The notes: generated by a model from the sequence alone, not told the origin. A stretch of 64,000 nt of DNA from an uncultured Thermoleophilia bacterium (GCA_963747935.1 CAVVGY010000010.1:131951-195950); one strand, 5' to 3'; counted from the first letter of the stretch, positions 879-45,148 are shown. Numbers and translations: made by a program.

Positions 879-3149
879 TCAGGCCGGGACGGGCGCGGGC
901 GCCGGCCAGCACAGGCCGTACTCGTCGAGCTCCGCGTAGGTCACGCCGCCCAAGGACGGGATGAGGAGGGCGATCTCGTCCTCCCACACCGCCTTGGGGT
1001 AGCCGGCCTGCCACTCGTGGCCGAGCCGCTTGGCCACCTCGCGGAACGCCCACCAGCCGGGACGGGCGGCGCCGGCCGGGCGCTGGATCCGGCGCAGGCG
1101 GCTGATGCGCCGCTCGGCGTTGGTGAACGTGCCGTCCTCCTCGCCCCAGGCGACGGACGGCAGCACCACGTCGGCCAGCTCGGCCAGGTCTCCGCGCACG
1201 GCGCCCTGGACGATCACGAAGCCGGCGGCGTCGATGGCCGCGAGCACGTCGGCGGCGTCACCGAACGAAGCCGCCTCGTTGGCCCAGACCCAGGCGGTGG
1301 TGACGGCGCCGTCCTTAAGGCCGGAGAGGATCTCGCCGGTGGCGCGGCCGGGCTCGGCCGGCAGCGTGGCGACGCCCCAGGCGTCGGCCAGGCGCTGCCG
1401 GGCCTCCGCGTCCGCGACCAGGTCGCCGCCGGGCAGCAGGTCGGGCGCCACGCCCATACCCACGAGGCCCTGGACGTTGCCTGCGCCGAGCGGCAGCGCG
1501 ACGCTGCGGGCGCCGGCCAGGTCGTCGAGCAGCGACTGCAGCTTGACGACGGCTGCTCCGGTGCCGGCCAGGTCGTCGGTGGCGCCGAGCGTGGCGCACA
1601 CTACGGCCGGACGCACATCGACGAGCTTGGCGGCGATGGTGCGGATGGTGGCCGCGTCCACGCCGGAGTCCTCGGCGATGCGCTCCGGCAGCACCGCGGC
1701 CAGCATGGCCTCGAGCTCACGCTCGTGCGGCACCACGTCGCCGGCCTCGCGTCGCTCGTGCAACTCGTTGGCGAGCAGCACGGCGATGATGCCGTTGAGC
1801 ACCTCGGGGATCTGCGCCGGCTCGACCGTGACGCGCACCGCGGCGGCGTCGCCGAGGTCGCTGTGGCCGGCGTCGAGCACCATGAGGTGGGCGCCGTCGC
1901 GGACGGCGCGGCGCAGGGCCGTGCCGGCCACCGGGTGGTCGGCCACCTCGCCGTCGCCGACCACGAGGACGGCGCGGGCCTCCTCGAGCACCGTCAGGGC
2001 GCCGGAGGTGTAACACACGCCGGCGCCCGTCCCCGTGCTCGCGAGCGACACGTTCGAGGTCTGGGCGACGCGGTGGTCGATGTCGTTGGTGCCGAGCACG
2101 GCGCGGAAGAACTTCTGCGCCTGGTAGGCCTCCTCGTTGGTGCACACCGGCGCGATGAGGCCGGCCACTTCGCCGGGCGCTGCCGCGCCGAGCTTCTCGG
2201 CGACCAGATCGAGCGCTTCGTCCCAGCTCGCCTTGACGAGCTGCCCGTCCTTGCGCACCAGCGGCTCCTCGAGCCGGGCGCGGTCGTCCGGCTCCAGCAC
2301 CGCGAACCGGCCGCGCTTGCACAGGCGGCCGCGGTTGGGCGGCACGTCGCCGGCGCCGGTGACCTTGACCACCTCGCCGTCCTTGAGATGGACGACCGTC
2401 TGGCAGCCCATGCCGCAGTGCGGGCAGGTGGTGCGGATGCGCTGCAGCTCCCAGCTGCGGGCGATGCCCTTGGCCGTGCGCTCGGTGAGCGCCCCGACGG
2501 GGCAGACGTCCACGCACTGGCCGCAGAGCTCGCACTGCTCGAGGTCCGGCAGCGGGTACCAGTCCTTGCCGCCGGCGCGCTCCGCGCGCCGGCCGGAGGG
2601 ATGCGGCACCACGCCGTTGACCTGGATGGCGGTGCAGGCGGCCCAGCAGCGGCCGCAGAGGATGCACTTGGAGTAGTCGCGGATGACGTAGCTGTCTTCC
2701 GCGAACGGGAAGAGCTCGGCCGCCGGCATCTCCGTGGGCGGCTCGACCTGGTACTCGTAGGCGAGCCGGCTGAGCTCGCACTCGCCCAGGGCGTCACAGG
2801 TGATGCAGGTGTGACGCCCCGAGTTGATGAGCAGCTCGAGCGTGGACCGCCGCGAGTGCCGCACGCGGTCGCTCATGGTCTGGACGTCCATGCCCTCGGT
2901 GGCCGGCGTACTGCAGGCAGGCAGCAGCCTGCCCGCGCCGGCCACCTCGACCACGCAGAGGCGGCACACGTCACGGTGGCCCGCCTCGGGCAGGTAGCAG
3001 AGCGTCGGGATGGCGACGCCGTTGGCGCTCGCCACGTCCAGGATGGTCTGGCCGGGTTCGAAGCTCATGACCCGGCCGTCGACCGTGATCTGCGGCGCGG
3101 CCGTCACAGCTTCACTGTTCTCGGCGGGGGTGGTCGGTACGTCGGTCAT
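879..3149 (-). CDS. NuoG/FdhA-like molybdopterin-oxidoreductase-family Fe-S subunit (N-terminal 2Fe-2S, two 4Fe-4S ferredoxin motifs and a CPHCGMGC cluster motif)
   Basis: 756-aa ORF. Cysteine motifs seen: CYLPEAGHRDVCRLC, CILCGRCWAAC, CELCGQCVDVC and TTCPHCGMGC. Its ATG overlaps the stop codon of the upstream flavoprotein gene (ATGA). Confidence 0.75.
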   Translation of the reverse strand: MTDVPTTPAENSEAVTAAPQITVDGRVMSFEPGQTILDVASANGVAIPTLCYLPEAGHRDVCRLCVVEVAGAGRLLPACSTPATEGMDVQTMSDRVRHSRRSTLELLINSGRHTCITCDALGECELSRLAYEYQVEPPTEMPAAELFPFAEDSYVIRDYSKCILCGRCWAACTAIQVNGVVPHPSGRRAERAGGKDWYPLPDLEQCELCGQCVDVCPVGALTERTAKGIARSWELQRIRTTCPHCGMGCQTVVHLKDGEVVKVTGAGDVPPNRGRLCKRGRFAVLEPDDRARLEEPLVRKDGQLVKASWDEALDLVAEKLGAAAPGEVAGLIAPVCTNEEAYQAQKFFRAVLGTNDIDHRVAQTSNVSLASTGTGAGVCYTSGALTVLEEARAVLVVGDGEVADHPVAGTALRRAVRDGAHLMVLDAGHSDLGDAAAVRVTVEPAQIPEVLNGIIAVLLANELHERREAGDVVPHERELEAMLAAVLPERIAEDSGVDAATIRTIAAKLVDVRPAVVCATLGATDDLAGTGAAVVKLQSLLDDLAGARSVALPLGAGNVQGLVGMGVAPDLLPGGDLVADAEARQRLADAWGVATLPAEPGRATGEILSGLKDGAVTTAWVWANEAASFGDAADVLAAIDAAGFVIVQGAVRGDLAELADVVLPSVAWGEEDGTFTNAERRISRLRRIQRPAGAARPGWWAFREVAKRLGHEWQAGYPKAVWEDEIALLIPSLGGVTYAELDEYGLCWPAPAPVPA

Positions 3150-3150
3150 C

Positions 3151-5037
3151 TCAGACCACCCCTACCGCGATGCGGTAACAGCGCAGGCAGCGCTCGGCCT
3201 CGCGCCGCGCGTCGGCGGCGCTCACCGGCCCTTCGACCTCGTCGAAGCACTGGATGCGCACCTCCGGCGGCACGACCATGGGCCGCAGCTTCTCGGTGTT
3301 GCCGGTGAACGGCAGCGGCTGCTCGGCCTCCTTGCGCACGACCTCGAGCATCGCGTGCTCCAGGCGCACCTCCGGCGACGGGCCGACCGACTCTCCCTTG
3401 AGGAACTCGTTCATGGACTCGGCGGCGCGGCGTCCGGCGCCGAGGGCCGCGACGAGGCTGCTCGGCCCCGTGTAGCAGTCGCCGCCGCCGAACACGCGCG
3501 GGTCGGCGGACTGCATGGTGAGCGGGTCGACCTCCAGGGTCTTCCACTTGCTCACCTCGATGTGGCTCGGCACCAGCTGGTCGACGGAGCACACCTGGCC
3601 GATGGCCGGGACGATGCAGTCGCAGGGGATGACGAACTCGGAACCCTCGACCGGCTCGGGGCGGCGGCGCCCGGAGGCGTCGGGCTCCCCGAGCTGCATG
3701 CGCCTGCACTCGAGGCCCTTGACCACGCCGTCCTCGGCGATGATCTTCGTCGGCGCGACGAGAGTGACCATCTCGACGCCCTCCTCCTTGGCCTCGACGA
3801 TCTCGACCTGGTCGGCCGGCATCTCAGCCTCGGTGCGGCGGTACAGGAGCTTGACGTCGTCGAACCCGATGCGGATCGACGAACGGACGCAGTCCATGGC
3901 CACGTTGCCGCCGCCGATGACGAGCATCGTCTTGCCCTTGAGCGGCACGTTGCCGAAGGCGATCTCGCGCAGGAACTCCACGCCGGGCATGAAGCCCTGG
4001 TACCCGGCGTCCTCGCCCTCGCAGCCCATGCGCGCGGACTGGTGCGCGCCGACGGCGATGAACACGGCCTCGTAGCCCTGCTCGAACAGCTCTTCCATGG
4101 TCACGTCGACGCCGAAGCGGGTGTTGTACCTGATCTCGGCGCCGAGCGCCTGTACCCGGTCGATCTCGGCGCGCAGCACCTGGCGCGGCAGGCGGTAGTC
4201 GGGGATGCCGACGGCAGCCATGCCGCCGCCCTCGGGCAGAGCCTCGAGGATGGTGCTCTTGACGCCCTCGAGGCCGAGGTAGTAGGCGCAGGCCAGGCCG
4301 GCCGGCCCGGCGCCGATGATGGCGACCCGAGGCTTGCCCGGCAGCTCGCGCGGGACGATCTCGGCCTCGCTGTCGGCCACGAAGCGCTTGAGCGTGCGGA
4401 TGGCGACCGGCTCGTCGACGGAGCCGCGGCGGCAGGCGTCCTCGCAGGGACGCACGCACACGCGGCCGATGGTGGCCGGCATGGGGCAGCGCTTGCGCAC
4501 GGCCTCGGACGAGCGCTCGACCTCGTCGATGCGGAGCTGCTCCACATACGCCGGGATGTCCACGCCGGCCGGGCAGGCGGCCATGCACGGCGCCACCACC
4601 GTGCGAGCGTAGGTGCCGCGCGGGATCGGCTTGCGGGCGGCGACGGCGGCCTCGAAGGCCGCGCGGTTCTGCTCGAGCGACTCGAGCACCGCGTACCCGC
4701 CGGAGCGGCCGAGGTCGCAGCGCGAAGCCTCGGCGACGTGCTGCGCGAGCTCGTAGGCGCGCTGGAGGCGCTCCTCCGTGCCCACGCCGTCACAGATCTC
4801 CTCGAGGATGTCGCCGACCTCGTGCATGCCGATGCGACAGGGGAAGCACTGACCGCAGCACTCCTGCACGGTCTGGCGGGCGTACTCGCGGGTGAGGTCG
4901 ACGATGTCGACGGAGTCGTCCCACACGGCCATGCCGCCCCAGCCCATGACGGCACGGAAGGTGCCGTGGAGCTCGGCGGGCAGGAGCGATGGGTCGGTGG
5001 TCCAGGCACCCGCCACGGCGACGGCGGCGTCGGTCAT
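3151..5037 (-). CDS. NADH-binding Fe-S flavoprotein: a NuoF-like C-terminal 4Fe-4S region fused to a GltD-like FAD/NAD(P) oxidoreductase (diaphorase/beta subunit)
   Basis: In-frame ATG at 5037 (MTDAAVAVAG…). Motifs seen: CGQCFPCRIG (NuoF-type 4Fe-4S) and dinucleotide-binding VAIIGAGPAGLACAYYL and MLVIGGGNVAMDC. The longer ORF-track ORF extends upstream into a repeat element and is rejected. Confidence 0.75.
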   Translation of the reverse strand: MTDAAVAVAGAWTTDPSLLPAELHGTFRAVMGWGGMAVWDDSVDIVDLTREYARQTVQECCGQCFPCRIGMHEVGDILEEICDGVGTEERLQRAYELAQHVAEASRCDLGRSGGYAVLESLEQNRAAFEAAVAARKPIPRGTYARTVVAPCMAACPAGVDIPAYVEQLRIDEVERSSEAVRKRCPMPATIGRVCVRPCEDACRRGSVDEPVAIRTLKRFVADSEAEIVPRELPGKPRVAIIGAGPAGLACAYYLGLEGVKSTILEALPEGGGMAAVGIPDYRLPRQVLRAEIDRVQALGAEIRYNTRFGVDVTMEELFEQGYEAVFIAVGAHQSARMGCEGEDAGYQGFMPGVEFLREIAFGNVPLKGKTMLVIGGGNVAMDCVRSSIRIGFDDVKLLYRRTEAEMPADQVEIVEAKEEGVEMVTLVAPTKIIAEDGVVKGLECRRMQLGEPDASGRRRPEPVEGSEFVIPCDCIVPAIGQVCSVDQLVPSHIEVSKWKTLEVDPLTMQSADPRVFGGGDCYTGPSSLVAALGAGRRAAESMNEFLKGESVGPSPEVRLEHAMLEVVRKEAEQPLPFTGNTEKLRPMVVPPEVRIQCFDEVEGPVSAADARREAERCLRCYRIAVGVV

Positions 5038-5267
5038 GCAGCCTCCTCTGCGCCGGTCGGGCACTGGCTCGGCGACTGCCTCCCTCCAGGGCAGAGGTGG
5101 AGGGCCCGGACCGGTCGGTCGTTCCCGGCGCCCCTGCGGGGCGTCTCTCTTCCCCATGATACGTAGGTGTGCCCCGGGCCACAATCGAGGGGGTCCGCCG
5201 CGAGAGTACGCGGAGCAGAGCGGCGAGGGAGCGGGGCTGCCGATGGCGCGGAGACCAAGCGCTCCAT

Positions 5268-5376
5268 GAGGTAGGTGCGTTGACCCTACGTACGTCTGAA
5301 CGTACGTCCAAGCACCCCATGGGGCTTCCGGACGTACGCTTGGACGTACGCATCCGGAACGCACTACCCCTGCCGG
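5268..5376. repeat. Repeat family A copy 1: roughly 110-bp palindrome-rich intergenic element (GGACGTACGTCC … CCCCATGGGG … GGACGTACG)
   Basis: Homologous copies lie at about 19953, 36238 and 40366. All start GAGGTAKGTG/GAGTAGTGTG and contain the CCCCATGGGG and GGACGTACG palindromes. Confidence 0.7.
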
Positions 5377-5412
5377 AACGGCGAGACCCAGGTCGGACGA
5401 CAGGGCCCGGGG

Positions 5413-6084
5413 TCAGGCGCCGGAGAGGCCGCGCCGGACGGCGTCCACCAGAGCCTGTGGCTGCTGGGCGCCGCTCACCGCGAAGCGCCGTCCGAACATG
5501 AACGTCGGGACGGCGCGGATGCCCAGCTTGGCCGCGCGCTGCTCGTCGAGGCGCACGGAAGTGGACGTGAGGTCGTCGTCCAGCGCGGCGACGACGCGCG
5601 CCTCGGGCATGCCGGCGGCGTCGGCGAGGCGCTCGAGCACCTCGCGGTCGCCGACATCCTCGCCGCGAGCCCAGTACGCCGAGAGCAGGCCGAGGCCCAG
5701 GCGGCGCTGGAGCTCCTGGTGGACGAGTTCTCCGCTCTCGTCCTCCCGCTCCTCCAGCGCCCCGGCCAGCAGCCGGTGCGCGAGGAACGTGCTGGGGCGA
5801 TGCTGCAGCTCGCGGAGGTCGAGCAGCGGCAGGCCGTCGGCGGCCGCCGCTCGCCGCAGCCCGTCCGACATGCCGTCGAGCGCGCCGGGTCCGTACTTGG
5901 CCTCGATGTACTCGGTCCAGTCGACGCCCTCCGGCGGCACGGCCGGGTCGAGCTCGAACGCTCCGAAGCGCCAGTTCAACTGCTGCGCTTCGTCGCCGAC
6001 TTCTTCGAGAGCGGTGAGCCAGCGCGACGCGCCGACATAGCACCACGGTCAGACGATGTCGGACCAGATGACGACGTCGATCAT
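5413..6084 (-). CDS. DsbA/FrnE-family thiol-disulfide oxidoreductase with an in-frame TGA at the first Cys of the CxxC motif (codon 6049..6051); either a selenoprotein candidate (U-P-W-C) or a pseudogene
   Basis: ATG at 6084 with the RBS GAGGAGA. Translation is MIDVVIWSDIV-TGA-PWCYVGASRW…, in frame with the 188-aa ORF 5413..5979, which shows the DsbA-like AVPTFMF motif. Confidence 0.55.
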
Positions 6085-6199
6085 GTCCTGTCTCCTCGTG
6101 AGCTGTAGCCGGGTGCCAGCACATCATTTCCCGTGCTGCGCCGGAGTAGTCCGAGGCGTTGGTTCCTGAGAGAATCGGCGCAGCAGCATCACCCCGTGT

Positions 6200-6649
6200 G
6201 TGAAGGAGCAGCGCATGCCGTCAGAGCTCAGCGTCCACGCCGTACAGCAGGGTCCCATGGAGTTCGCGATCAGCGACGGCGATCACGCCGTGACCATCGA
6301 CTATCCGCTCCCCGGGACGCCCGGCGCGGACGGCGAGCTCAAGGGCATGACGCCGTTGCGACTGTTGCTCGCGAGCCTGGCCGGGTGCAGCGGCAGTTCC
6401 GTCGCCGTGCTGCTGCGGCGCGACGGAGAGCCGGTGGAGCGGGTGGAGGTCCGGGCGAGCGGGCGGCGTCGCGACGAGCACCCGACGGTCATCACCGACA
6501 TCGACCTGGAGTTCACCGTGGTCGGCGACGTCGACCCGGCGCGGGTGGAGCACGCGCTGCGGCTCTCCGAGACCACCATCTGCCCGGTGTGGGCGATGGT
6601 GAAGGCGGGTACGCCGGTCAGCAGCAGCTTCACGGTGGTGGCGACGTGA
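6200..6649 (+). CDS. OsmC/Ohr-family peroxiredoxin-like protein
   Basis: 149-aa ORF with the conserved LLLASLAGC and TTICPV motifs typical of OsmC. Confidence 0.75.
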   Translation: MKEQRMPSELSVHAVQQGPMEFAISDGDHAVTIDYPLPGTPGADGELKGMTPLRLLLASLAGCSGSSVAVLLRRDGEPVERVEVRASGRRRDEHPTVITDIDLEFTVVGDVDPARVEHALRLSETTICPVWAMVKAGTPVSSSFTVVAT

Positions 6650-19952: not shown

Positions 19953-20062
19953 GGAGTAGTGTGCATTCGGCTCACGTACCTCTGGACGTACGTCCAAACG
20001 CCCCATGGGGTTTCCGGACGTACGCTTGGGCGTGCACGTGACGCCCAGCGAAGCACCCCGCC
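19953..20062. repeat. Repeat family A copy 2
   Basis: GGAGTAGTGTGCATTCGGCTCACGTACCTCTGGACGTACGTCCAAACGCCCCATGGGGTTTCCGGACGTACGCTTGGGCGTGCACG…. Confidence 0.7.
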
Positions 20063-20073
20063 CGGCCGCCGCT

Positions 20074-20766
20074 TCACTCCTCCTTGCCGGTCCGGTCCGG
20101 AGGCGGGGTGATCGGCACGCGGTGGCGCTCGTCGAACGCCGCCGAGTGCGTGTAGCGGTAGAGCCGCGCGTAGAGCGGCGAGACGAGGCCGTTCAGGAGC
20201 GCCCAGCCGGCGAAGACGACCAGCAGCAGCGCCTGGGCGGCGAGCGGGGCGAGGCCGCCGGCGGCGGACGCAGCGCCTCCGCCGGCCCCTCCCTCGCCGC
20301 CGCCCTGCGCCAGCTGCGCGGCGAGCGCCAGAGCCAGCGAGGCGACGATGGCCATCCAGTAGTCGAGCGGCAGGCGCCAGAGCCAGCGGCCGTGCCACCA
20401 CACGTTGCCCGGCCGGAAGCGGCGCCAGCCGTAGGCCGGGTTGAGCAGGAACCAGAGGAAGTCCCAGATGGCGCTCCACGAGACCCAGGCGGCGAGCAAC
20501 GCCAGTTCCCTCGCCGCCGTCCACGGCGCGCCGAAGGCGAACGGCAGGTGGAAGAAGACCAGCGTCGCCGCGAACATCAGCAGGTTGTAGCCGGTGAGCG
20601 GCTTGCCGGCGAGCACCAGGCCGAAGAGGCGGGCCAGCGGCCCGCTCACCCGGTACGGGGTCGGCAGCTTCTCGGCCCAGCCGTAGGGCCCCTCGATCTC
20701 GATCTCGACGAGCGCGAGCACGAGGGCGAGGACGCAGAGCAGCGGCGCGGCGACGGCGAACGTCAC
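20074..20766 (-). CDS. Hypothetical Trp-rich integral membrane protein, co-directional with the upstream glycosyltransferase
   Basis: GTG start (VTFAVAAPLLCVLALVLALV…). Multiple transmembrane helices and a W-rich loop GWRRFRPGNVWWHGRWLWRLPLDYW. Confidence 0.4.
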   Translation of the reverse strand: MTFAVAAPLLCVLALVLALVEIEIEGPYGWAEKLPTPYRVSGPLARLFGLVLAGKPLTGYNLLMFAATLVFFHLPFAFGAPWTAARELALLAAWVSWSAIWDFLWFLLNPAYGWRRFRPGNVWWHGRWLWRLPLDYWMAIVASLALALAAQLAQGGGEGGAGGGAASAAGGLAPLAAQALLLVVFAGWALLNGLVSPLYARLYRYTHSAAFDERHRVPITPPPDRTGKEE

Positions 20767-20879
20767 GCCGGCGCCCCCGCGGCGGAGCCGGAGTCGCTGC
20801 GCGTGGCCCGGTGCGGCCTGCGCTTGCGCGCCGCTCCGGACTCCACGCGCGCGAGCTGCTCGCGCAGCGCGGCGAGCGC

Positions 20880-21897
20880 CTCGGTGTTGCCGTCCTGGCT
20901 GTAGCCCTCGGAGCCGCCGCTCGTGGTCGGGGATGCGCTCGAGGAAGCGAGGACGGCGTCCTCTGACGGGCGCCTCGGCGTACTCGCCGTACCCGAGGCG
21001 CTCCAGGTACCGCGCGTTGAGCGTCTGCTCGAACTGGCCGGCGACCGGGATCGAGAGCGCCGGCTTGTGCAGGTACACGCACTCGGAGAGCAGCGAGAAC
21101 CCGCCGCCGGCGATCACACCGCGCGCGGTGCGCAGGTCGTCGAGGAACCCGGCCTCGCTGAAGGGCCGGTAGACCAGCCGGCCGTCGACGAGGTCCTCGG
21201 TGAGGTCGCGGCGCACACCGTAGAGCCGGCAGGGCAGCCCGGTCTTGTGCAGCGTGCGGACCAGGGTCTCGCTGCCGGCCGCCGTCTGGTACACGAGCAG
21301 GTGCTCGCCCGGCTCGGACTCGGCGGCGAGCACGGCCTCTCGCAGCACCGGCGCCACCAGCGTGGTGGCCTGGCGCCGCAGCGGCGGGCGGAAGAACGTC
21401 GGCACGATCGCCCAGTGCAGCCCCGCGGCCTTGGTGCGGGCGATCTGCCGCGCCAGCTCGAAGTCCAGGGTGTCGCCGCCGATGATGCCCTCGTCGTGCC
21501 GGCAGCGGTCGAGCATCATGATGTTGTCCACGCTGATGGCCGGCACGCGCTCGCGGTGCGCGACCGTGAGCACGAACGACTCGAAGTCGCTGACCACCAC
21601 ATCGGGCTCGAAGTCGCGCGCCACCTCGTAGAAGCTCCGCACCTGCGCGGGCCACCGGCTCACGGCGCCGCGCAGGTTCTGCGTCACCGTCTCCCAGCGC
21701 CTGATGGCGTTGTCCTCGTAGGCCAGCGAGAACCCGAGGATCTCGCGCACCTCGGGGAAGTGCTGCGCGAGGTAGTCGTGCGCGCGCCCGGAGGCGACGA
21801 CGAGCACGTCGTGCTCGCCGACGAGGTCGGCAAGAAACGCGTGCGAGCGGGTGGCGTGGCCCATGCCCTCACCGGCCACGCCGTACAGGATCCGCAC
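20880..21897 (-). CDS. GT1/GT28-type glycosyltransferase (MGT-like); 3' end uncertain, probably frameshifted
   Basis: GTG start after GAAGGAGGG. N-terminal VRILYGVAGEGMGHATR (the G-x-G-H motif of GT1) and C-terminal GGGFSLLSE…PALSIPVAGQFEQ. Confidence 0.6.
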
Positions 21898-22023
21898 CGG
21901 GCCCTCCTTCTTCGTGCTGTGGAGGCCGGCGGCCACACGCCGGCCGGCCCGTGCAGACTCTACCCGCCCCGGCCCGTTCTCGCGCTGGCCGGGCTCACCG
22001 GTGCAGGGTAGGGTTCGGAGACA

Positions 22024-23295
22024 GTGCAGTACGCGCAGACCCTCAACGACTACAGCCCCGGCCGCCGCACGGCCATCATCGGGACCCTCGGCGCGCTCGG
22101 GACCATCGCGCCGTTCTCCATCGACCTGTACCTCCCCGCGCTCCCGACCCTCGGCAGCGACCTCGGCGCGTCCCAACAGCAGGTCGCCGTCACCGTGACC
22201 ATGTTCCTGCTCGGCCTGGCGGTCGGGCAGCTGCAGGCCGGCGCACTGAGCGACACCCACGGGCGACGCGTGCCGCTGCTGGCCGGCCTGCTCCTCTTCA
22301 CGCTGGCGAGCCTGGCCTGCGCGCTCGCGCCGAACGTCCAGGTGCTGATGGCCGCCCGGTTCCTGCAGGGACTGGGCGGGGCGGCCGGGATGGCCATCTC
22401 GAACGCGTCCGTGACCGACTACGCCCGCGGCCGCGAGGCCGCGCGTCTGCTGAGCCGCCTCGCCATGATCGGCGGCGTCGCGCCCGTCATCGCACCGCTG
22501 ATCGGCGGCCAGCTGCTGCGCGTCGTCTCGTGGCGGGGGCTGTTCTTCGTGCTCACCGGCATCGGGCTCGCGCTGTTCGTCGGCGTGCTCGCCGGGCTGC
22601 CCGAGAGCCTGCCGCGCGAGCGGCGCTCCGCTGCCGGCGCCCGGGCCCTGCTCCGCAGTCTCCTCACGATCTCCCGCGACCTGGGCTTCCTCGGCCTCGC
22701 GCTCGCCGGCGCGTTCAGCTTCGCGGGGTTCTTCGCCTACCTGGCCGGCTCGTCGTTCGTCTACCAGGACGTGTACGGCGTGTCGCCGGCGGCGTTCAGC
22801 GTGCTGTTCGCGATCAACGCGGTGGGCATGCTCGGGGCGAACCAGCTCAACCACCGGCTGCTCGCCCGACACTCGCCGCAGCGGCTCCTCGCCGCCGCCC
22901 TGGTCGTGAACCTCGCCGCCGGCGCGGCCGCCCTCGCCGTGCTCCTCGCCGGCGGTCTCCCGATCTGGGTCCTCGCCGCGCCGCTGTTCGTGCTCGTGGC
23001 CAGCGTAGGGCTCATCATCCCGAACTCCACGGCCCTGGCGCTCTCGCTCCACCCGGACGCCGCGGGGACCGCCTCGGCGTTCCTGGGCACGCTCCGGCTC
23101 GGCCTCGGCGCCCTGGCGACCCCGCTCGTCGGCCTCGGGGGCGGCATGGACGGCGTCTCCATGGGCCTCGTCATCGCGGTGGCCGGCGCGCTGGCGCTCG
23201 CGACGTTCGCGGTCGTCATGTGGCGTGAGCGCAGCCTCAGGGACGCGTCCTGCGAGTACACGCCAGGCACCTGCGCAGACATGACCGTCTGTTGA
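22024..23295 (+). CDS. Bcr/CflA-family MFS drug-efflux transporter
   Basis: 423 aa with 12 predicted transmembrane helices and the DTHGRR and PESLPRER motifs. Confidence 0.8.
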   Translation: MQYAQTLNDYSPGRRTAIIGTLGALGTIAPFSIDLYLPALPTLGSDLGASQQQVAVTVTMFLLGLAVGQLQAGALSDTHGRRVPLLAGLLLFTLASLACALAPNVQVLMAARFLQGLGGAAGMAISNASVTDYARGREAARLLSRLAMIGGVAPVIAPLIGGQLLRVVSWRGLFFVLTGIGLALFVGVLAGLPESLPRERRSAAGARALLRSLLTISRDLGFLGLALAGAFSFAGFFAYLAGSSFVYQDVYGVSPAAFSVLFAINAVGMLGANQLNHRLLARHSPQRLLAAALVVNLAAGAAALAVLLAGGLPIWVLAAPLFVLVASVGLIIPNSTALALSLHPDAAGTASAFLGTLRLGLGALATPLVGLGGGMDGVSMGLVIAVAGALALATFAVVMWRERSLRDASCEYTPGTCADMTVC

Positions 23296-24569
23296 GCCGC
23301 CTGGACGCCACCACGCCGTTCGATCGCTTCACCCCCGGCCGCCGCGCCGGCATCATCCTCATCTTCGGCGGCCTCTGGACCCTGGGGTCGTTCGCGACCG
23401 ACCTCTTCCTGCCGGCGATGCCCGCGGCGGCCAAAGCCCTCGGCGCGTCCGATTCCGCCGTGGCTCTCAGCGTCACCACCTTCCTGATCGGCCTGGGGCT
23501 GGGCCAGCTGATCGCCGGACCGGTCAGCGACGGGCGCGGCCGGCGGCCGACCCTGCTCGTCGGGCTGGCGGTCTTCATCGCCACAGCGGTCGTCTGCATC
23601 GTCGCGCCGTCGGTGGAGCTGCTCATCGCGATGCGCCTGATCCAGGGCATGGCCGCCGCCTTCGGCCTCGCGATCCCCAACGCCATGGTCACCGACTACG
23701 CGCGCGGTCGCGAGGCCGCCCGGCTCTTCTCCTGGATCGTGATCATCGGCGGCGTGGCGCCGCTGGTGGCTTCGCTGGCCGGCGCCCAGATGCTCCGGCT
23801 GCTGGGCTGGCGCGGGCCGTTCGTCGCGCTGACCGCGATCAGCGTCGTCGCCCTCGTGTGCGTCGCCCTCTGGCTGCCGGAGAGCCTGCCGCGCGAGCGA
23901 CGACTCACCGGCGGCCTGCGCACGGCGCTCCGTACCATGGCCGGCCTGACTCGAGACGGCCGCTTCATGGGCTACACCTTCACCGGCGCCTTCATCTACA
24001 TGGCCTTCTTCGCCTACCTGGGCGGCTCCTCGTTCGTCTTCCAGCACCAGTACGGCATCTCACCGACCACCTACAGCATCCTGTTCGCCGTCAACGCGCT
24101 GGGGATGCTGGCTGCGGGCCAGGCGAACCACCGCCTCCTGGCCCGCTTCTCCCCGCGGACGCTGCTCAACGCCGCCCTCATCGCCTTCACGGTCGCCGGC
24201 ATGGCCGTCCTGTTCTCGGCGCTGACCGGCGCGTTCGGCATCTGGGGCCTTGCGGTGCCGTTCTTCGTGATCGTCGCCGGCATGGGCGTCATCCTGCCCG
24301 ACTTGACCGCGCTGGCGCTCTCGCTCCATCCCGAGGTGGCGGGGACGGCGTCCGCCTACTTCGGCGGCCTCCGGCTCGGCCTGGGCGCGCTGGCGATGCC
24401 GCTGATCGGCGTCGGCGGCACAGTCACGGCGACGTCCACGGGGCTCCTGATCGCCGTTTCGGCGCTCGCCGCTCTCGCTCTCTTCTGGGTCACGGCGCGC
24501 CGCGCCCGGGACCAGCAGGTCCTGCTCGACCTCCCCGAGGAGAAGTCGTCGGACGTGCCGGTGGCGTGA
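23292..24569 (+). CDS. Bcr/CflA-family MFS transporter, tandem paralog of the preceding gene
   Basis: TTG start overlapping the upstream stop (TTGA). Same motifs in the same positions (DGRGRR, PESLPRER, DYARGREAARL). Confidence 0.75.
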   Translation: MSRLDATTPFDRFTPGRRAGIILIFGGLWTLGSFATDLFLPAMPAAAKALGASDSAVALSVTTFLIGLGLGQLIAGPVSDGRGRRPTLLVGLAVFIATAVVCIVAPSVELLIAMRLIQGMAAAFGLAIPNAMVTDYARGREAARLFSWIVIIGGVAPLVASLAGAQMLRLLGWRGPFVALTAISVVALVCVALWLPESLPRERRLTGGLRTALRTMAGLTRDGRFMGYTFTGAFIYMAFFAYLGGSSFVFQHQYGISPTTYSILFAVNALGMLAAGQANHRLLARFSPRTLLNAALIAFTVAGMAVLFSALTGAFGIWGLAVPFFVIVAGMGVILPDLTALALSLHPEVAGTASAYFGGLRLGLGALAMPLIGVGGTVTATSTGLLIAVSALAALALFWVTARRARDQQVLLDLPEEKSSDVPVA

Positions 24570-36149: not shown

Positions 36150-36237
36150 GCGCGGAGCGCCAGGGCAGAGCGCGGCGGCGCCTGAGCGCGGCGCAGCGGC
36201 GACATCCATCCGCGAGTGGGTCCGGCCCCGGGGGATT

Positions 36238-36348
36238 GAGGTATGTGCGATGCGGTCACGTACCTCCAGGCGTACGTGCAGGAGCCCCATGGGACGTCCG
36301 GACGTACGCCTGGACGTACTCCGCCCCGACGCACTACCTTCTCGCCGG
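36238..36348. repeat. Repeat family A copy 3
   Basis: GAGGTATGTGCGATGCGGTCACGTACCTCCAGGCGTACGTGCAGGAGCCCCATGGGACGTCCGGACGTACGCCTGGACGTAC…ACGCACTACCTTCTCGCCGG. Confidence 0.7.
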
Positions 36349-40295: not shown

Positions 40296-40385
40296 CCTCC
40301 GGCGTGAGGCATGCACCTCCGGCGTTGGGTCCGCGCCGTCCAGCGTGAGTGCGCCCTCTCGGCGTGAGGTATGTCCCTCCCGCCT
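40296..40385. repeat. Imperfect 20-40-bp direct repeats (CCTCYSGGCGTGAGGYATG), three or four copies, abutting repeat A copy 4
   Basis: GCGCCTCCGGCGTGAGGCATGCA / CCTCCGGCGTTGGGTCC…CCAGCGTGAGTGCGC / CCTCTCGGCGTGAGGTATGTC. Confidence 0.45.
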
Positions 40386-40470
40386 GCGTACGTGCAAGCG
40401 TACGTCCAAACACCCCATGGGGCTTCTGGACGTACGCTTGGACGTACGTGTCCGAACAGGACATATGACC
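40366..40470. repeat. Repeat family A copy 4
   Basis: GAGGTATGTCCCTCCCGCCTGCGTACGTGCAAGCGTACGTCCAAACACCCCATGGGGCTTCTGGACGTACGCTTGGACGTACGTG. Confidence 0.7.
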
Positions 40471-42414: not shown

Positions 42415-42828
42415 ATGACCGTCATCCCGCAGGAGCTCCACGACCTTCTGGCCGGGGGCCACAACGTCTGGGTCGCGACCGTCGGCCCCGACGGCACCCC
42501 CAACGTCTCGATCAAGGGCAGCGGCGCCCTCCTCGACGACGAGCACCTCTACTTCGCGGACATGTTCAGTCACAAGACGCGCGAGAACCTGGAGCACGAC
42601 CCCCGCGTGGCCGTCGGCATCCACGACCCGGAGCGCAAGGTCGCGATGCAGGTCAAGGGCCAGGCGGAGCTGATCGACCACGGTGAGGTGTTCGACCAGG
42701 TGAACGACAAGCTCAAGGCGATCAGCGAGCAGCTGCACCTGCCGCCGATGAAGTACGTGGTGAGGATCACCGTGGAATCGGTGTGGGACATGGGCCCCGG
42801 GCCGCACGCGGGAGAGCAGCTGGACTGA
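42415..42828 (+). CDS. Pyridoxamine-5'-phosphate-oxidase-like (split-barrel flavin-binding) protein
   Basis: 137 aa; WVATVGPDGTPNVSIKG…YFADMFSHKTRENL. Confidence 0.7.
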   Translation: MTVIPQELHDLLAGGHNVWVATVGPDGTPNVSIKGSGALLDDEHLYFADMFSHKTRENLEHDPRVAVGIHDPERKVAMQVKGQAELIDHGEVFDQVNDKLKAISEQLHLPPMKYVVRITVESVWDMGPGPHAGEQLD

Positions 42829-42847
42829 CCACCCTGCGGCACGCTGT

Positions 42848-43420
42848 CTACTGCTGCAGCCGCTCCACGATCGTCCTGGCGACCTCTTCCAGCTGGGCGT
42901 CGCTGAGCTGCGGCTTCTCCCACAGGAACCCGGTGCTGATCAGGTAGGCGTTGTCGCCGACCTTCACGGCGATGCCCTTCTGCATGTCGGTCCAGTCCCA
43001 CCAGAACGCGTCGTCGCCGAGCCCTGCGATGGTCTGCGGCGCCATGTTCGACGCCTGCCGCTGTTCCTCGAACATCCCGGCGTTCCCTACGCGGATCCAG
43101 AGCGCCTCAGGCGACTTCTCGCTCTGGTAAATGGCGAAGTACTTCGAGGTGCCCTCGCGCTGATGCCAATCCGACTCGGGCATCGGCGTCGCGTCCTTGA
43201 TGCCGGTGATGGCGCGCACGTCGTCCTGCGTGAGCAGGGCGGCGTAGTCCACCGCGGCGGCCGGCGACGCTGCCGCCGCCCCGCCGTCCCCGCCCGACCC
43301 GTCGCCCCCCGACCCCGAGGACGTGGCGGCCTCTCCCGAGCCACCGCAGGCGGCGAGCGCGAGCACCGCCCAGGCGGCCACGATCAGCATCGCCGCCAGG
43401 CCCCTTCGGCCCCTGCGCAT
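42848..43420 (-). CDS. Lipoprotein of unknown function
   Basis: Internal ATG; signal peptide plus lipobox LALAACGGS followed by a Gly/Ser-rich linker. Confidence 0.45.
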   Translation of the reverse strand: MRRGRRGLAAMLIVAAWAVLALAACGGSGEAATSSGSGGDGSGGDGGAAAASPAAAVDYAALLTQDDVRAITGIKDATPMPESDWHQREGTSKYFAIYQSEKSPEALWIRVGNAGMFEEQRQASNMAPQTIAGLGDDAFWWDWTDMQKGIAVKVGDNAYLISTGFLWEKPQLSDAQLEEVARTIVERLQQ

Positions 43421-43603
43421 CCTGGTCGACGATCCTTCCGAGCACAGCATGGCGTCCCCCTCTCCCAAGCTCCCCGGTCGGACGCCAAACGTGCACGGCG
43501 TCACAAGTCCATGAAACTGACGCAGGCGGCGCGTCGTCAAGCGTTAGGGACGCGCCCAGCAGACTCTCATGCGACTCTCAGGAAGAGCGGCTACGATGCC
43601 CCC

Positions 43604-45148
43604 ATGACGACCTCCGCCCGCACATCCACCTGCGCCGCCGAACCCTCAGCCGCCTCTGCGGAACCCCTCGCCGCCGCTGCCGGACTTTCAGCCGGCCGGT
43701 CACGACCCTGGTCCAAGGGCGGGATCCGGGCGATCTCGAGGACCGCCTGGATCGAGATCGCCGTCGCCCTCATCTGCTTCGCCGTGCTGTGCGGCGCGGC
43801 GCTCACGCGCACGGTCACGCTGCTCGAGCCGGATGACTACGCCTATCGCGCCTCCATCGTGGCGCTCACCGAGGGCCACGTGATCCTCAGCGACGCGCAG
43901 TACCAGGACCTCGCGGAGCGCCTGCAGCAGCAGGACTCCGCGAGCGGGCTCAGCGGCAGCCGGGGGATCGCGCAGTGGACGCAACTTGACGACGGGAACT
44001 GGGTGAGCGAGAAGAACCCCGGCTACCCGTTCCTGGTCGCGCCGTTCGCGCTCGTTGGGCTGGAGCGGCTGGCGCCGCTGTTCTACGGCGGCCTCGGCTG
44101 CGTCGCGCTGTTCTTCGGCGGACGGCGCTGGCTGGGCGCCTGGGGCGGCACGTTCGCCGTCGGATTGTTCTGCTCGTCGGGCGCGGCGCTCGCGTTCGCG
44201 TGGCGCGCCTGGATGCCCACCTTCACCGGCGCCGCGCTCATCGCGGCCGGCGCCGGCGCCCTGCTCTGGGCGTTGCTCGCCGTCGACCGGCGGCCGCGGC
44301 TGCGGACGGCCGTCGGCCTGCTCGGGTTCCTCGCCCTCGAGGGCGCGATGCTCGTCCGCTACACGGACGCGATCGCGCTCGCCGTCGCCGCTGTGGCCGT
44401 GCTGGCCGTGTGGCGCTTCGTCCCCGGCCGGCTGCCCAAACGGGCGCTGATCTGGTGGCTCGGCTCGGCCGTGCTCGCCGGCGGGCTGGTGCTCGGCTGG
44501 GACGCGCTGGTCTACGGTTCAGTGACGGCGACCGGCTACGCGAGCGGCGTCATCACCTTCGGGCTCGGAGCGATCGGCGGCAACCTGGACCACATGCCCC
44601 TGCTGCTGGTGCAGACCATGCCGGCGTGCCTGCTCGCCCTCGCCGGCCTCGTCTGGCTGGTCGGGCGCAGCGTCTGGCTGCGGCGCACGGCGCCCGAGGA
44701 CGAAGTGCGCCCCTCCCGCGCCGCTGCCCACCGCGACCTCGCGGTCGCCGCGGCGCTCACCGCCGTCTGGTGGGGCACGTGGGCGCTCTACTTCACCTAC
44801 TACTGGACGGCGCAGATGAGCACCGGGCCGGGCGGCGCCGGCGGGCCCGGCGGCGGCGGGGCCGGCCCTGCCGGCGCGGACAACGCCATCCACCTCATCA
44901 GGTTCTTCGTCCCCGCGCTGGCGCCGATCGCCCTGCTGGGCGCCTGGGCGCTGGTGCGCGTGCCGCGCTGGGCAGCGCTCGCCGCCGTGGCCGGCTTCTT
45001 CGGCCTCGGGTTCTGGTCCTACGCGGACATGGCCTCTGCCGACCCTCGCGGAGGCATCATGGGCGGAATGCCCGGCGCGCCCGGCGGCACCCCACCCACC
45101 GGCATGCCGGTCCCGCAGGGGATGCCGACGCCGCCCGCTATGCAGTAG
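43604..45148 (+). CDS. Polytopic membrane protein (possible GT39/ArnT-like glycosyltransferase fold) with a Gly/Pro-rich C-terminus
   Basis: ATG at 43604. At least 10 predicted transmembrane helices and a DDYAYRASIVAL loop near the N-terminus. Confidence 0.4.
   Translation: MTTSARTSTCAAEPSAASAEPLAAAAGLSAGRSRPWSKGGIRAISRTAWIEIAVALICFAVLCGAALTRTVTLLEPDDYAYRASIVALTEGHVILSDAQYQDLAERLQQQDSASGLSGSRGIAQWTQLDDGNWVSEKNPGYPFLVAPFALVGLERLAPLFYGGLGCVALFFGGRRWLGAWGGTFAVGLFCSSGAALAFAWRAWMPTFTGAALIAAGAGALLWALLAVDRRPRLRTAVGLLGFLALEGAMLVRYTDAIALAVAAVAVLAVWRFVPGRLPKRALIWWLGSAVLAGGLVLGWDALVYGSVTATGYASGVITFGLGAIGGNLDHMPLLLVQTMPACLLALAGLVWLVGRSVWLRRTAPEDEVRPSRAAAHRDLAVAAALTAVWWGTWALYFTYYWTAQMSTGPGGAGGPGGGGAGPAGADNAIHLIRFFVPALAPIALLGAWALVRVPRWAALAAVAGFFGLGFWSYADMASADPRGGIMGGMPGAPGGTPPTGMPVPQGMPTPPAMQ

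Follow-up and report, generated by a model that had tools for sequence, protein, structure and literature searches.

Selenoproteins of the DsbA-like type have been known for some time. Zhang et al. (2005, Genome Biol; PMC1088965) described a 'DsbA-like protein' (COG2761) with a UxxC motif as a family of selenoproteins. Such selenoproteins were reported from 4 genomes in 2006 (Zhang et al., PMC1794560) and from 41 organisms in 2016 (Peng et al., PMC5029168). A 2026 AEM review carries the entry 'DsbA-like protein form 1, PF01323, UxxC' (PMC13188914). The related FrnE subfamily (cd03024) comprises predicted cytoplasmic thiol oxidoreductases. FrnE from Deinococcus radiodurans (drFrnE) is stress-induced, possesses disulfide isomerase and reductase activity, and regenerates its active site by a C-terminal CxxxxC tail which some homologues lack (PMC8945050). 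Here we examine a FrnE/DsbA-like gene in 64,000 nucleotides (nt) of DNA from an uncultured Thermoleophilia bacterium (GCA_963747935.1, CAVVGY010000010.1:131951-195950), the window in what follows. Codon 12 of this gene, at the first position of its redox motif, is TGA. The original prediction had left the choice between a selenoprotein and a nonsense pseudogene. Our analysis favours a selenoprotein: the TGA is present in all orthologues, constraint exists on both sides of it, a hairpin of the bacterial type follows, and the UxxC family is catalogued. The premise that bacteria place selenocysteine (Sec) at the N-terminal Cys of CxxC motifs, DsbA-like proteins included, agrees with the literature cited above. 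We consider it highly probable that codon 12 encodes Sec in a FrnE/DsbA-type redox protein, for short Sec-FrnE.

The likeness to the DsbA-like form 1 selenoproteins is close. The Pfam domain is the same, the motif would be UxxC with Sec in place of the N-terminal Cys, and Cys homologues are widespread. Further, a candidate selenocysteine insertion sequence (SECIS) of the bacterial type is located directly 3' of the UGA and has a G at the first loop position. The published members that are named come from Deltaproteobacteria, Firmicutes and marine metagenomes. In contrast, the putative Sec form is fixed in a soil clade of Thermoleophilia that comprises more than 100 protein clusters and 33 species-level genomes; its presumed SECIS shows hardly any variation, and one subclade has a conserved operon context. 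Because the UxxC DsbA-like family is already published, the Thermoleophilia gene adds a member or a clade to it and does not represent a novel kind of selenoprotein. What is new are the clade-wide fixation of the likely Sec form, a compact and near-invariant SECIS candidate, a systematic truncation in the databases and, in the subclade, a neighbourhood of oxidoreductase and OsmC genes.

Conservation of the in-frame TGA

The minus-strand open reading frame (ORF) translates as MIDVVIWSDIV-TGA-PWCYVGASRW and has AVPTFMF close to its C-terminus. The ATG and the ribosome-binding GAGGAGA of the original prediction were located at 6084..6082 and 6097..6091, respectively. Translation likewise agrees with an in-frame TGA where CPWC would have its first Cys, and the frame, said to stay open into a DsbA-like C-terminal region, runs to a stop at 5415..5413, 223 codons in total. 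The G+C content is 0.92 at the third codon positions (GC3) of this frame and 71% in the window.

DNA of orthologues was located via two peptide motifs far 3' of the TGA; thus, the set was not pre-selected for TGA. It consists of 34 sequences, i.e., the window and 33 loci from 33 species-level genomes. Most of these are labelled as metagenome-assembled genomes (MAGs) of Thermoleophilia, several just as Actinomycetota or Actinomycetes, and one contig as Deltaproteobacteria. The latter, L010 (JBLMXT010000394.1, 'Deltaproteobacteria bacterium MAG248'), carries the same module of Sec-FrnE, flavoprotein and NuoG-like genes, 73-84% identical to that of the Thermoleophilia loci; the contig is probably actinobacterial and was mis-binned.

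The result is uniform. Codon 12 is TGA in 34 of 34 sequences, always followed directly by C. The original prediction had proposed to compare Cys against TGA at this codon; an ordinary Cys codon was not encountered in any orthologue. Pairwise amino acid (aa) identity among the 34 sequences ranges from 0.28 to 0.92 (median 0.60). The same TGA is present in three independent Joint Genome Institute (JGI) metagenome assemblies from different samples, which are 97.3-97.6% identical to the window at the nt level (17-19 mismatches per 698 nt) and thereby give an indirect answer to what raw reads would tell. Exactly 11 codons 5' of the TGA every sequence has a start codon, ATG or GTG, together with a Shine-Dalgarno motif.

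How are the flanks of the TGA preserved? In codons 2-11 the minor-allele fractions at positions 1, 2 and 3 are 0.044, 0.003 and 0.156, i.e., variation is mainly confined to third positions. The 30 nt of 5' untranslated region ahead of them are unconserved (minor-allele fraction 0.505). Past the TGA, P-W-C-Y-V-G is kept in 32-34 of the 34 sequences. The ORF is intact in 33 of them, with lengths of 214-234 codons; L029 alone ends early, after 187 codons. Judged by these comparisons, purifying selection acts on the protein sequence encoded 5' and 3' of the TGA alike. An in-frame start codon within codons 13-18 was absent from all 34 sequences. The first possible downstream restart differs among species, the earliest being at codon 19 and the latest at codon 72 or beyond. 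Distant homologues, namely L034 and L035, FrnE (5CNW) and SCO1869 (3GL5), have Cys at the position aligned with the TGA. A search for close Cys forms with the N-terminal 65 residues gave no candidates, which is a weak negative.

A database of 5.8 billion proteins was searched as well. The best 120 matches have 47-98% identity, and almost all of them are N-terminally truncated calls of 134-199 residues without the redox motif. Public annotation of this gene, which is widespread in soil actinobacteria, is, consequently, consistently wrong. A 303-aa call (P0085) has Trp at the TGA, apparently from a code in which TGA means Trp. P0089, P0093 and P0095, also among the best 120, look frameshifted. 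Look-up of the 188-aa product, as truncated in the window, gave no exact database record.

The hairpin downstream of the TGA

The original prediction had noticed, by eye, only a short GC stem (GCGC-gtc-GCGC) behind the TGA. The stem is real, yet it is merely the top of an 8-bp hairpin at 6036..6018. The RNAalifold consensus of the 34 aligned sequences gives this core hairpin and, around it, an outer helix. In the core helix 272 of 272 pair cells are standard pairs. The outer helix is retained in 30-34 of the 34 sequences, with changes from G-C to G-U and from U-A to U-G.

Bacterial SECIS elements (bSECIS) are described by four criteria: a loop of 3-9 nt, with G within the first two positions and typically G[G/U]N; a stem of 4-16 bp; a spacing of 16-37 nt between UGA and loop; and a minimum free energy (MFE) of -7.5 kcal/mol or lower (PMC13188914). 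All 34 sequences fall within all four limits. The loops consist of 3 nt (GUC in 24, GGA in nine and GGC in one), the stem has 8-9 bp, and the UGA-to-loop spacing is 20 nt. The MFE is -9.4 to -11.3 kcal/mol for the hairpin alone and -16.8 to -20.9 kcal/mol for nt 8-44. Lack of a SECIS-like hairpin, which would have spoken against Sec, is thus not what the orthologues present. As in the SECIS of Escherichia coli fdhF and the bSECISearch model, the hairpin is located within the coding sequence (CDS) after the UGA and combines a small G-U/G-G loop, a 20 nt spacing and a stable upper stem. It differs from these by its minimal 3-nt triloop, by having no evident bulged U and by the absence of similarity to Rfam SECIS_1-5.

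Synonymous sites provide a further measure of the constraint on the RNA. Synonymous-codon entropy averages 0.28 bits in codons 13-23 compared with 0.99 bits in codons 24-223; of all sliding windows in the gene, codons 13-23, where the hairpin is located, have the lowest value. Codons 17-21 (GTC GGC GCG TCG CGC), although four- or six-fold degenerate, show essentially no variation. Changes in the core stem are limited to seven C-G to U-G and a single compensatory C-G to U-A (L024). Even the replacements A19V and S20E leave the stem paired, via C-G to U-G. From the alignment, the suppression of synonymous variation is stronger evidence for the putative hairpin than covariation. The Cys-form homologues have no hairpin at the equivalent position.

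Decoding of codon 12

According to the interpretation favoured here, UGA codon 12 would be recoded to Sec by the standard bacterial pathway. The hairpin within the CDS would recruit the SelB-GTP-Sec-tRNA(Sec) complex, and the weak UGA-C termination context may help Sec insertion to compete with termination. SelB is predicted to bind the hairpin at 6018..6036, and the inserted residue is presumably Sec. In its catalytic cycle the enzyme would alternate between a selenolate/thiol state and one with a Sec12-Cys15 selenenylsulfide, and disulfides or other oxidised substrates may be reduced or isomerised in the course of this cycle. Elsewhere TGA is an ordinary stop: it terminates 38 of 45 coding ORFs of the window, the gene at 5413..6084 itself and 31 of 33 orthologues. 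Recoding thus is site-specific and does not reflect a change of the genetic code. Another conserved in-frame TGA was not detected in the ~700 kb of DNA scanned (window and relatives' loci).

Several observations weigh against Sec. Most importantly, neither the 64-kb window nor the ~600 kb of DNA flanking the gene in the relatives yielded selA, selB, selD or tRNA-Sec. ARAGORN reported no tRNA-Sec in the window or the 33 loci, Rfam at gathering threshold no RNA family in the window, and Pfam scans of ~30 window ORFs no SelA, SelB or SelD; tblastn searches of the window and all loci with SelA, SelB and SelD from E. coli gave no match. A second selenoprotein gene was not seen in the ~700 kb scan, nor does the neighbouring FdhA-like gene depend on Sec. 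For Conexibacter woesei DSM 14684 and Patulibacter sp. I11, Peng et al. (PMC5029168) report none of SelD, SelA and SelB. As to the hairpin, there is so little variation in the helix that covariation fails to attain significance, 124 of 500 shuffles scoring at least as high. Taken from the window sequence alone, the 70 nt after the TGA are no stabler than shuffles (z = +0.8), hence only comparative analysis is informative here. Equally strong hairpins occur at 0.13% of the positions in the GC-rich window. No Rfam SECIS family matched, SECIS_3 reaching 15.4 bits against a gathering score of 63, and a permissive Rfam scan of 5300-6200 returned only chance-level matches, SECIS_3 among them.

According to Table S1 of Peng et al. 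(2016; PMC5029168), SelD, SelA and SelB are present in Solirubrobacter soli, Solirubrobacter sp. URHD0082, Conexibacter woesei Iso977N and Patulibacter americanus. Their presence in some and absence in other cultured Thermoleophilia indicates that Sec is a trait of this class, yet a patchy one, with documented cases confined to certain cultured Solirubrobacterales. In the flank of one Thermoleophilia MAG (L025:5574-5654) ARAGORN reported a 'tRNA-Pyl' with anticodon CTA, which may be a false positive or else a tRNA resembling an amber suppressor.

Other explanations of the TGA have to be weighed against these data. A nonsense pseudogene, inactivated by a change from TGC to TGA and with its remaining frame undecayed, requires but one substitution, and the gene callers, which read codon 12 as a stop, have truncated almost all of the best 120 homologues. 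Yet the TGA persists in every orthologue although synonymous sites are near saturation (0.99 bits), protein-level selection is apparent on either side of it, and all ORFs but one are intact; nor are the orthologues assembly copies of a single sequence, as their range of pairwise identities attests. An error of sequencing or assembly, with TGC as the true codon, might be suspected from the apparent indels elsewhere in the window and from overlapping or broken ORFs in the GC3 map. The original prediction had held such an error to be less likely, arguing that the other apparent errors are indels. This judgement gains considerably from the three independent, ~97% identical assemblies of different samples and from the 33 other genomes, which stem from different projects and sequencing technologies and have the TGA throughout. 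Because of the 34 orthologues and the three assemblies, we regard the gene as neither pseudogene nor sequencing error; both are hardly credible. Even less credible is a genome-wide reassignment of TGA, e.g., genetic code 4 or 25. It could invoke the Trp of entry P0085, but would have to account for the regular use of TGA as terminator in the window, in this gene and in the orthologues, and for the lack of a further conserved in-frame TGA in ~700 kb.

Two explanations concern translation itself. Termination at codon 12 could produce an 11-codon leader peptide, possibly regulatory, with reinitiation at a downstream start supplying the DsbA domain. Database gene calls indeed begin at a downstream GTG, TTG or ATG, and in eight distant orthologues codon 19 is an in-frame GTG. 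However, PWCYVG (codons 13-18) is conserved at the amino acid level and contains no in-frame start, so reinitiation cannot yield the conserved active-site segment; the first start varies in position by species, and a protein started downstream would be devoid of strand beta-1 and of the whole redox motif (FrnE residues 13-25). This makes reinitiation very unlikely. Less remote, though still improbable, is a selenium-independent read-through of UGA-C by a suppressor or by a near-cognate tRNA for Trp or Cys, maybe aided by the hairpin and of low yield. UGA-C is a weak terminator. The conservation of this context in all 34 sequences fits read-through, as do the missing selA, selB, selD and tRNA-Sec in the window and the relatives' flanks and the statistically weak covariation of the hairpin. 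On the other hand, a Cys codon would yield the same protein far more efficiently; that TGA was kept for so long across 34 lineages nonetheless argues against Cys as the encoded residue. Catalysis would be abolished if Trp took the nucleophilic position of CxxC. Finally, position, UxxC motif, loop sequence and spacing match the known Sec system, and the same family is a recognised selenoprotein. What doubt exists about Sec is mostly due to selenium-independent read-through.

Active site, gene neighbourhood and significance

When U is read as C, the product of the Sec-FrnE gene matches Pfam DSBA (PF01323) with 92.8 bits (cut-off 25.6) over residues 4-216, spanning profile positions 2-190 of 191. 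NCBIfam models do not match this protein. The best match among solved structures is D. radiodurans FrnE (5CNW/5CP1; E=2.5e-29, residues 3-216), and SCO1869 (3GL5) is matched as well. U-P-W-C aligns column by column with C-P-W-C of FrnE and of L034/L035; a CxxC-type redox motif, CP(W/F)C, as is typical of the N-terminus of helix alpha-1 in this family, would thus be present, provided the TGA is decoded as Sec or Cys. Like D. radiodurans FrnE (DR_0659), the protein runs from its N-terminus straight into IWSDIxCPWCY and is predicted to lack a signal peptide. The presumed cis-Pro loop, V192-P193-T194-F195, is invariant or nearly so in the family alignment and corresponds to VPFF in FrnE. Unlike the window gene with its TGA, FrnE has a Cys at this position. 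In addition, the window protein stops at residue 223, without the CxxxxC tail of drFrnE; this regeneration motif was not found in its C-terminus and is non-obligatory in the FrnE subfamily. In being tail-less it resembles the FrnE proteins of Streptomyces roseofulvus and D. maricopensis. Cys/Sec positions are limited to 12 and 15 in 29 of 34 orthologues.

Because the active site at residue 12, after a conserved beta-strand, leaves no room for a signal peptide, the protein is predicted to be cytoplasmic. By all sequence criteria it is a tail-less, presumably cytoplasmic FrnE with a putative Sec12/Cys15 centre. Since it has neither a CxxxxC tail nor a further Cys, recycling would need an external reductant or partner. 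The features of the locus are compiled in Table 1.

Table 1. Sec-FrnE, its signals and its neighbours; positions are those of the window.
Feature	Position	Strand	Remarks
Sec-FrnE/DsbA-like CDS	5413..6084	-	223 codons; putative Sec at codon 12; own TGA terminator 5415..5413
Shine-Dalgarno-like GAGGAGA	6091..6097	-	6 nt 5' of ATG 6084..6082
In-frame TGA, codon 12, probable Sec	6049..6051	-	first position of the U-P-W-C redox motif
TGC, codon 15	6040..6042	-	resolving Cys of UPWC, the protein's sole Cys; Cys in 34/34 orthologues
Putative bacterial SECIS core	6018..6036	-	8-bp stem, 3-nt loop, GUCGGCGC-GUC-GCGCUGGC; nt +16..+34 from the U of UGA
Apical loop of putative SECIS core	6028..6026	-	GUC in the window
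Extended putative SECIS structure	6008..6044	-	outer helix, nt 8-12 with 40-44, around the core hairpin; support below that of the core
OsmC-family gene, Cys form	6215..6649	+	Pfam OsmC, 59 bits; divergent from Sec-FrnE
Fe-S flavoprotein	3151..5157	-	NuoF C-terminal 4Fe-4S domain and GltD-like pyridine-nucleotide oxidoreductase domain
NuoG/FdhA-like gene, molybdopterin-oxidoreductase family	879..3149	-	co-directional, 3' of Sec-FrnE

The start codon of the Fe-S flavoprotein gene is uncertain and lies at ~5037 to 5190. Its product matches Pfam NADH_4Fe-4S, Fer4_20 and Pyr_redox_2 and, below cut-off, is PRK12814/PRK12771-like in NCBIfam. The NuoG/FdhA-like product has the Pfam domains Fer2_4, NADH-G_4Fe-4S_3, Molybdop_Fe4S4 and Molybdopterin; a match to the C-terminal Molydop_binding domain was not found in it. 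It scores under the NCBIfam cut-offs for Fdh-alpha (314 vs 666 bits) and for NuoG. At the expected catalytic site, where a CxRxUH-type motif would supply Sec or Cys as molybdenum ligand, it reads GTNDIDHRVAQTSN, without Cys or Sec, and its gene has no internal TGA; the motif for comparison is CARVUHGPS of E. coli FdhF. The gene thus does not encode a selenoprotein and is no evidence of selenium use; from its sequence the product is probably not a formate dehydrogenase. The original prediction had pointed to OsmC and formate-dehydrogenase-like neighbours. Both genes are present, and the second was rejected as support for the use of Sec.

The neighbourhood recurs. Among the closer loci, tblastn places OsmC next to the DsbA gene in ~21 loci; the flavoprotein gene is 3' of it in ~24 loci, and the NuoG/FdhA-like gene is syntenic in ~24 loci. 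On the JGI contigs an identical OsmC protein adjoins the truncated DSBA gene call. In a distant TGA-bearing clade (~50% identity) there are no conserved neighbours; the genes around are unrelated. In one Thermoleophilia subclade these genes form a conserved module: Sec-FrnE comes first, the Fe-S flavoprotein gene and the NuoG/FdhA-like gene follow as a conserved pair, and OsmC is divergent. From this synteny, a functional link of Sec-FrnE with the flavoprotein/NuoG-like pair and OsmC in redox stress is plausible. Because Sec-FrnE lacks a CxxxxC tail for self-regeneration, a dedicated flavoprotein reductase may be proposed: the Fe-S flavoprotein pair would be its NAD(P)H-linked reductase in an undescribed, Se-dependent cytoplasmic pathway of disulfide or hydroperoxide reduction, possibly recycling OsmC. 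This is a speculative proposal to which we assign a small chance.

A palindromic element of ~100 nt (5267-5368) is located between the stop of Sec-FrnE and the gene that follows. Related intergenic copies, 75-90% identical and in both orientations, are located at 19974-20033, 36237-36338 and 40365-40454. The palindrome is missing from most orthologous spacers and resembles a dispersed intergenic repeat of the repetitive extragenic palindrome (REP) or miniature inverted-repeat transposable element (MITE) kind. Elsewhere in the window, 20074-23328 and overlapping high-GC3 ORF pairs (e.g., 42764-45148 / 42848-43543) show opposite-strand overlap or apparent splitting. Either frameshift or indel errors or the shadow ORFs of high-GC DNA would fit these overlaps.

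What does the Sec-FrnE gene mean for the biology of these bacteria? The understanding of how Sec recoding works is unchanged by it. The annotation could be fixed by a simple rule, i.e., a TGA followed by the near-invariant 31-nt SECIS candidate. Studies of Sec insertion in actinobacteria could use the 8-bp hairpin with its G[U/G]N triloop as a compact element. If the flavoprotein pair were indeed the reductase, a flavoprotein-linked selenium pathway would operate in abundant soil actinobacteria. The finding would place a fixed, clade-wide selenoprotein in the Thermoleophilia, a dominant yet poorly studied soil lineage, and would imply a selenium requirement for the cytoplasmic thiol-redox defence of these organisms.

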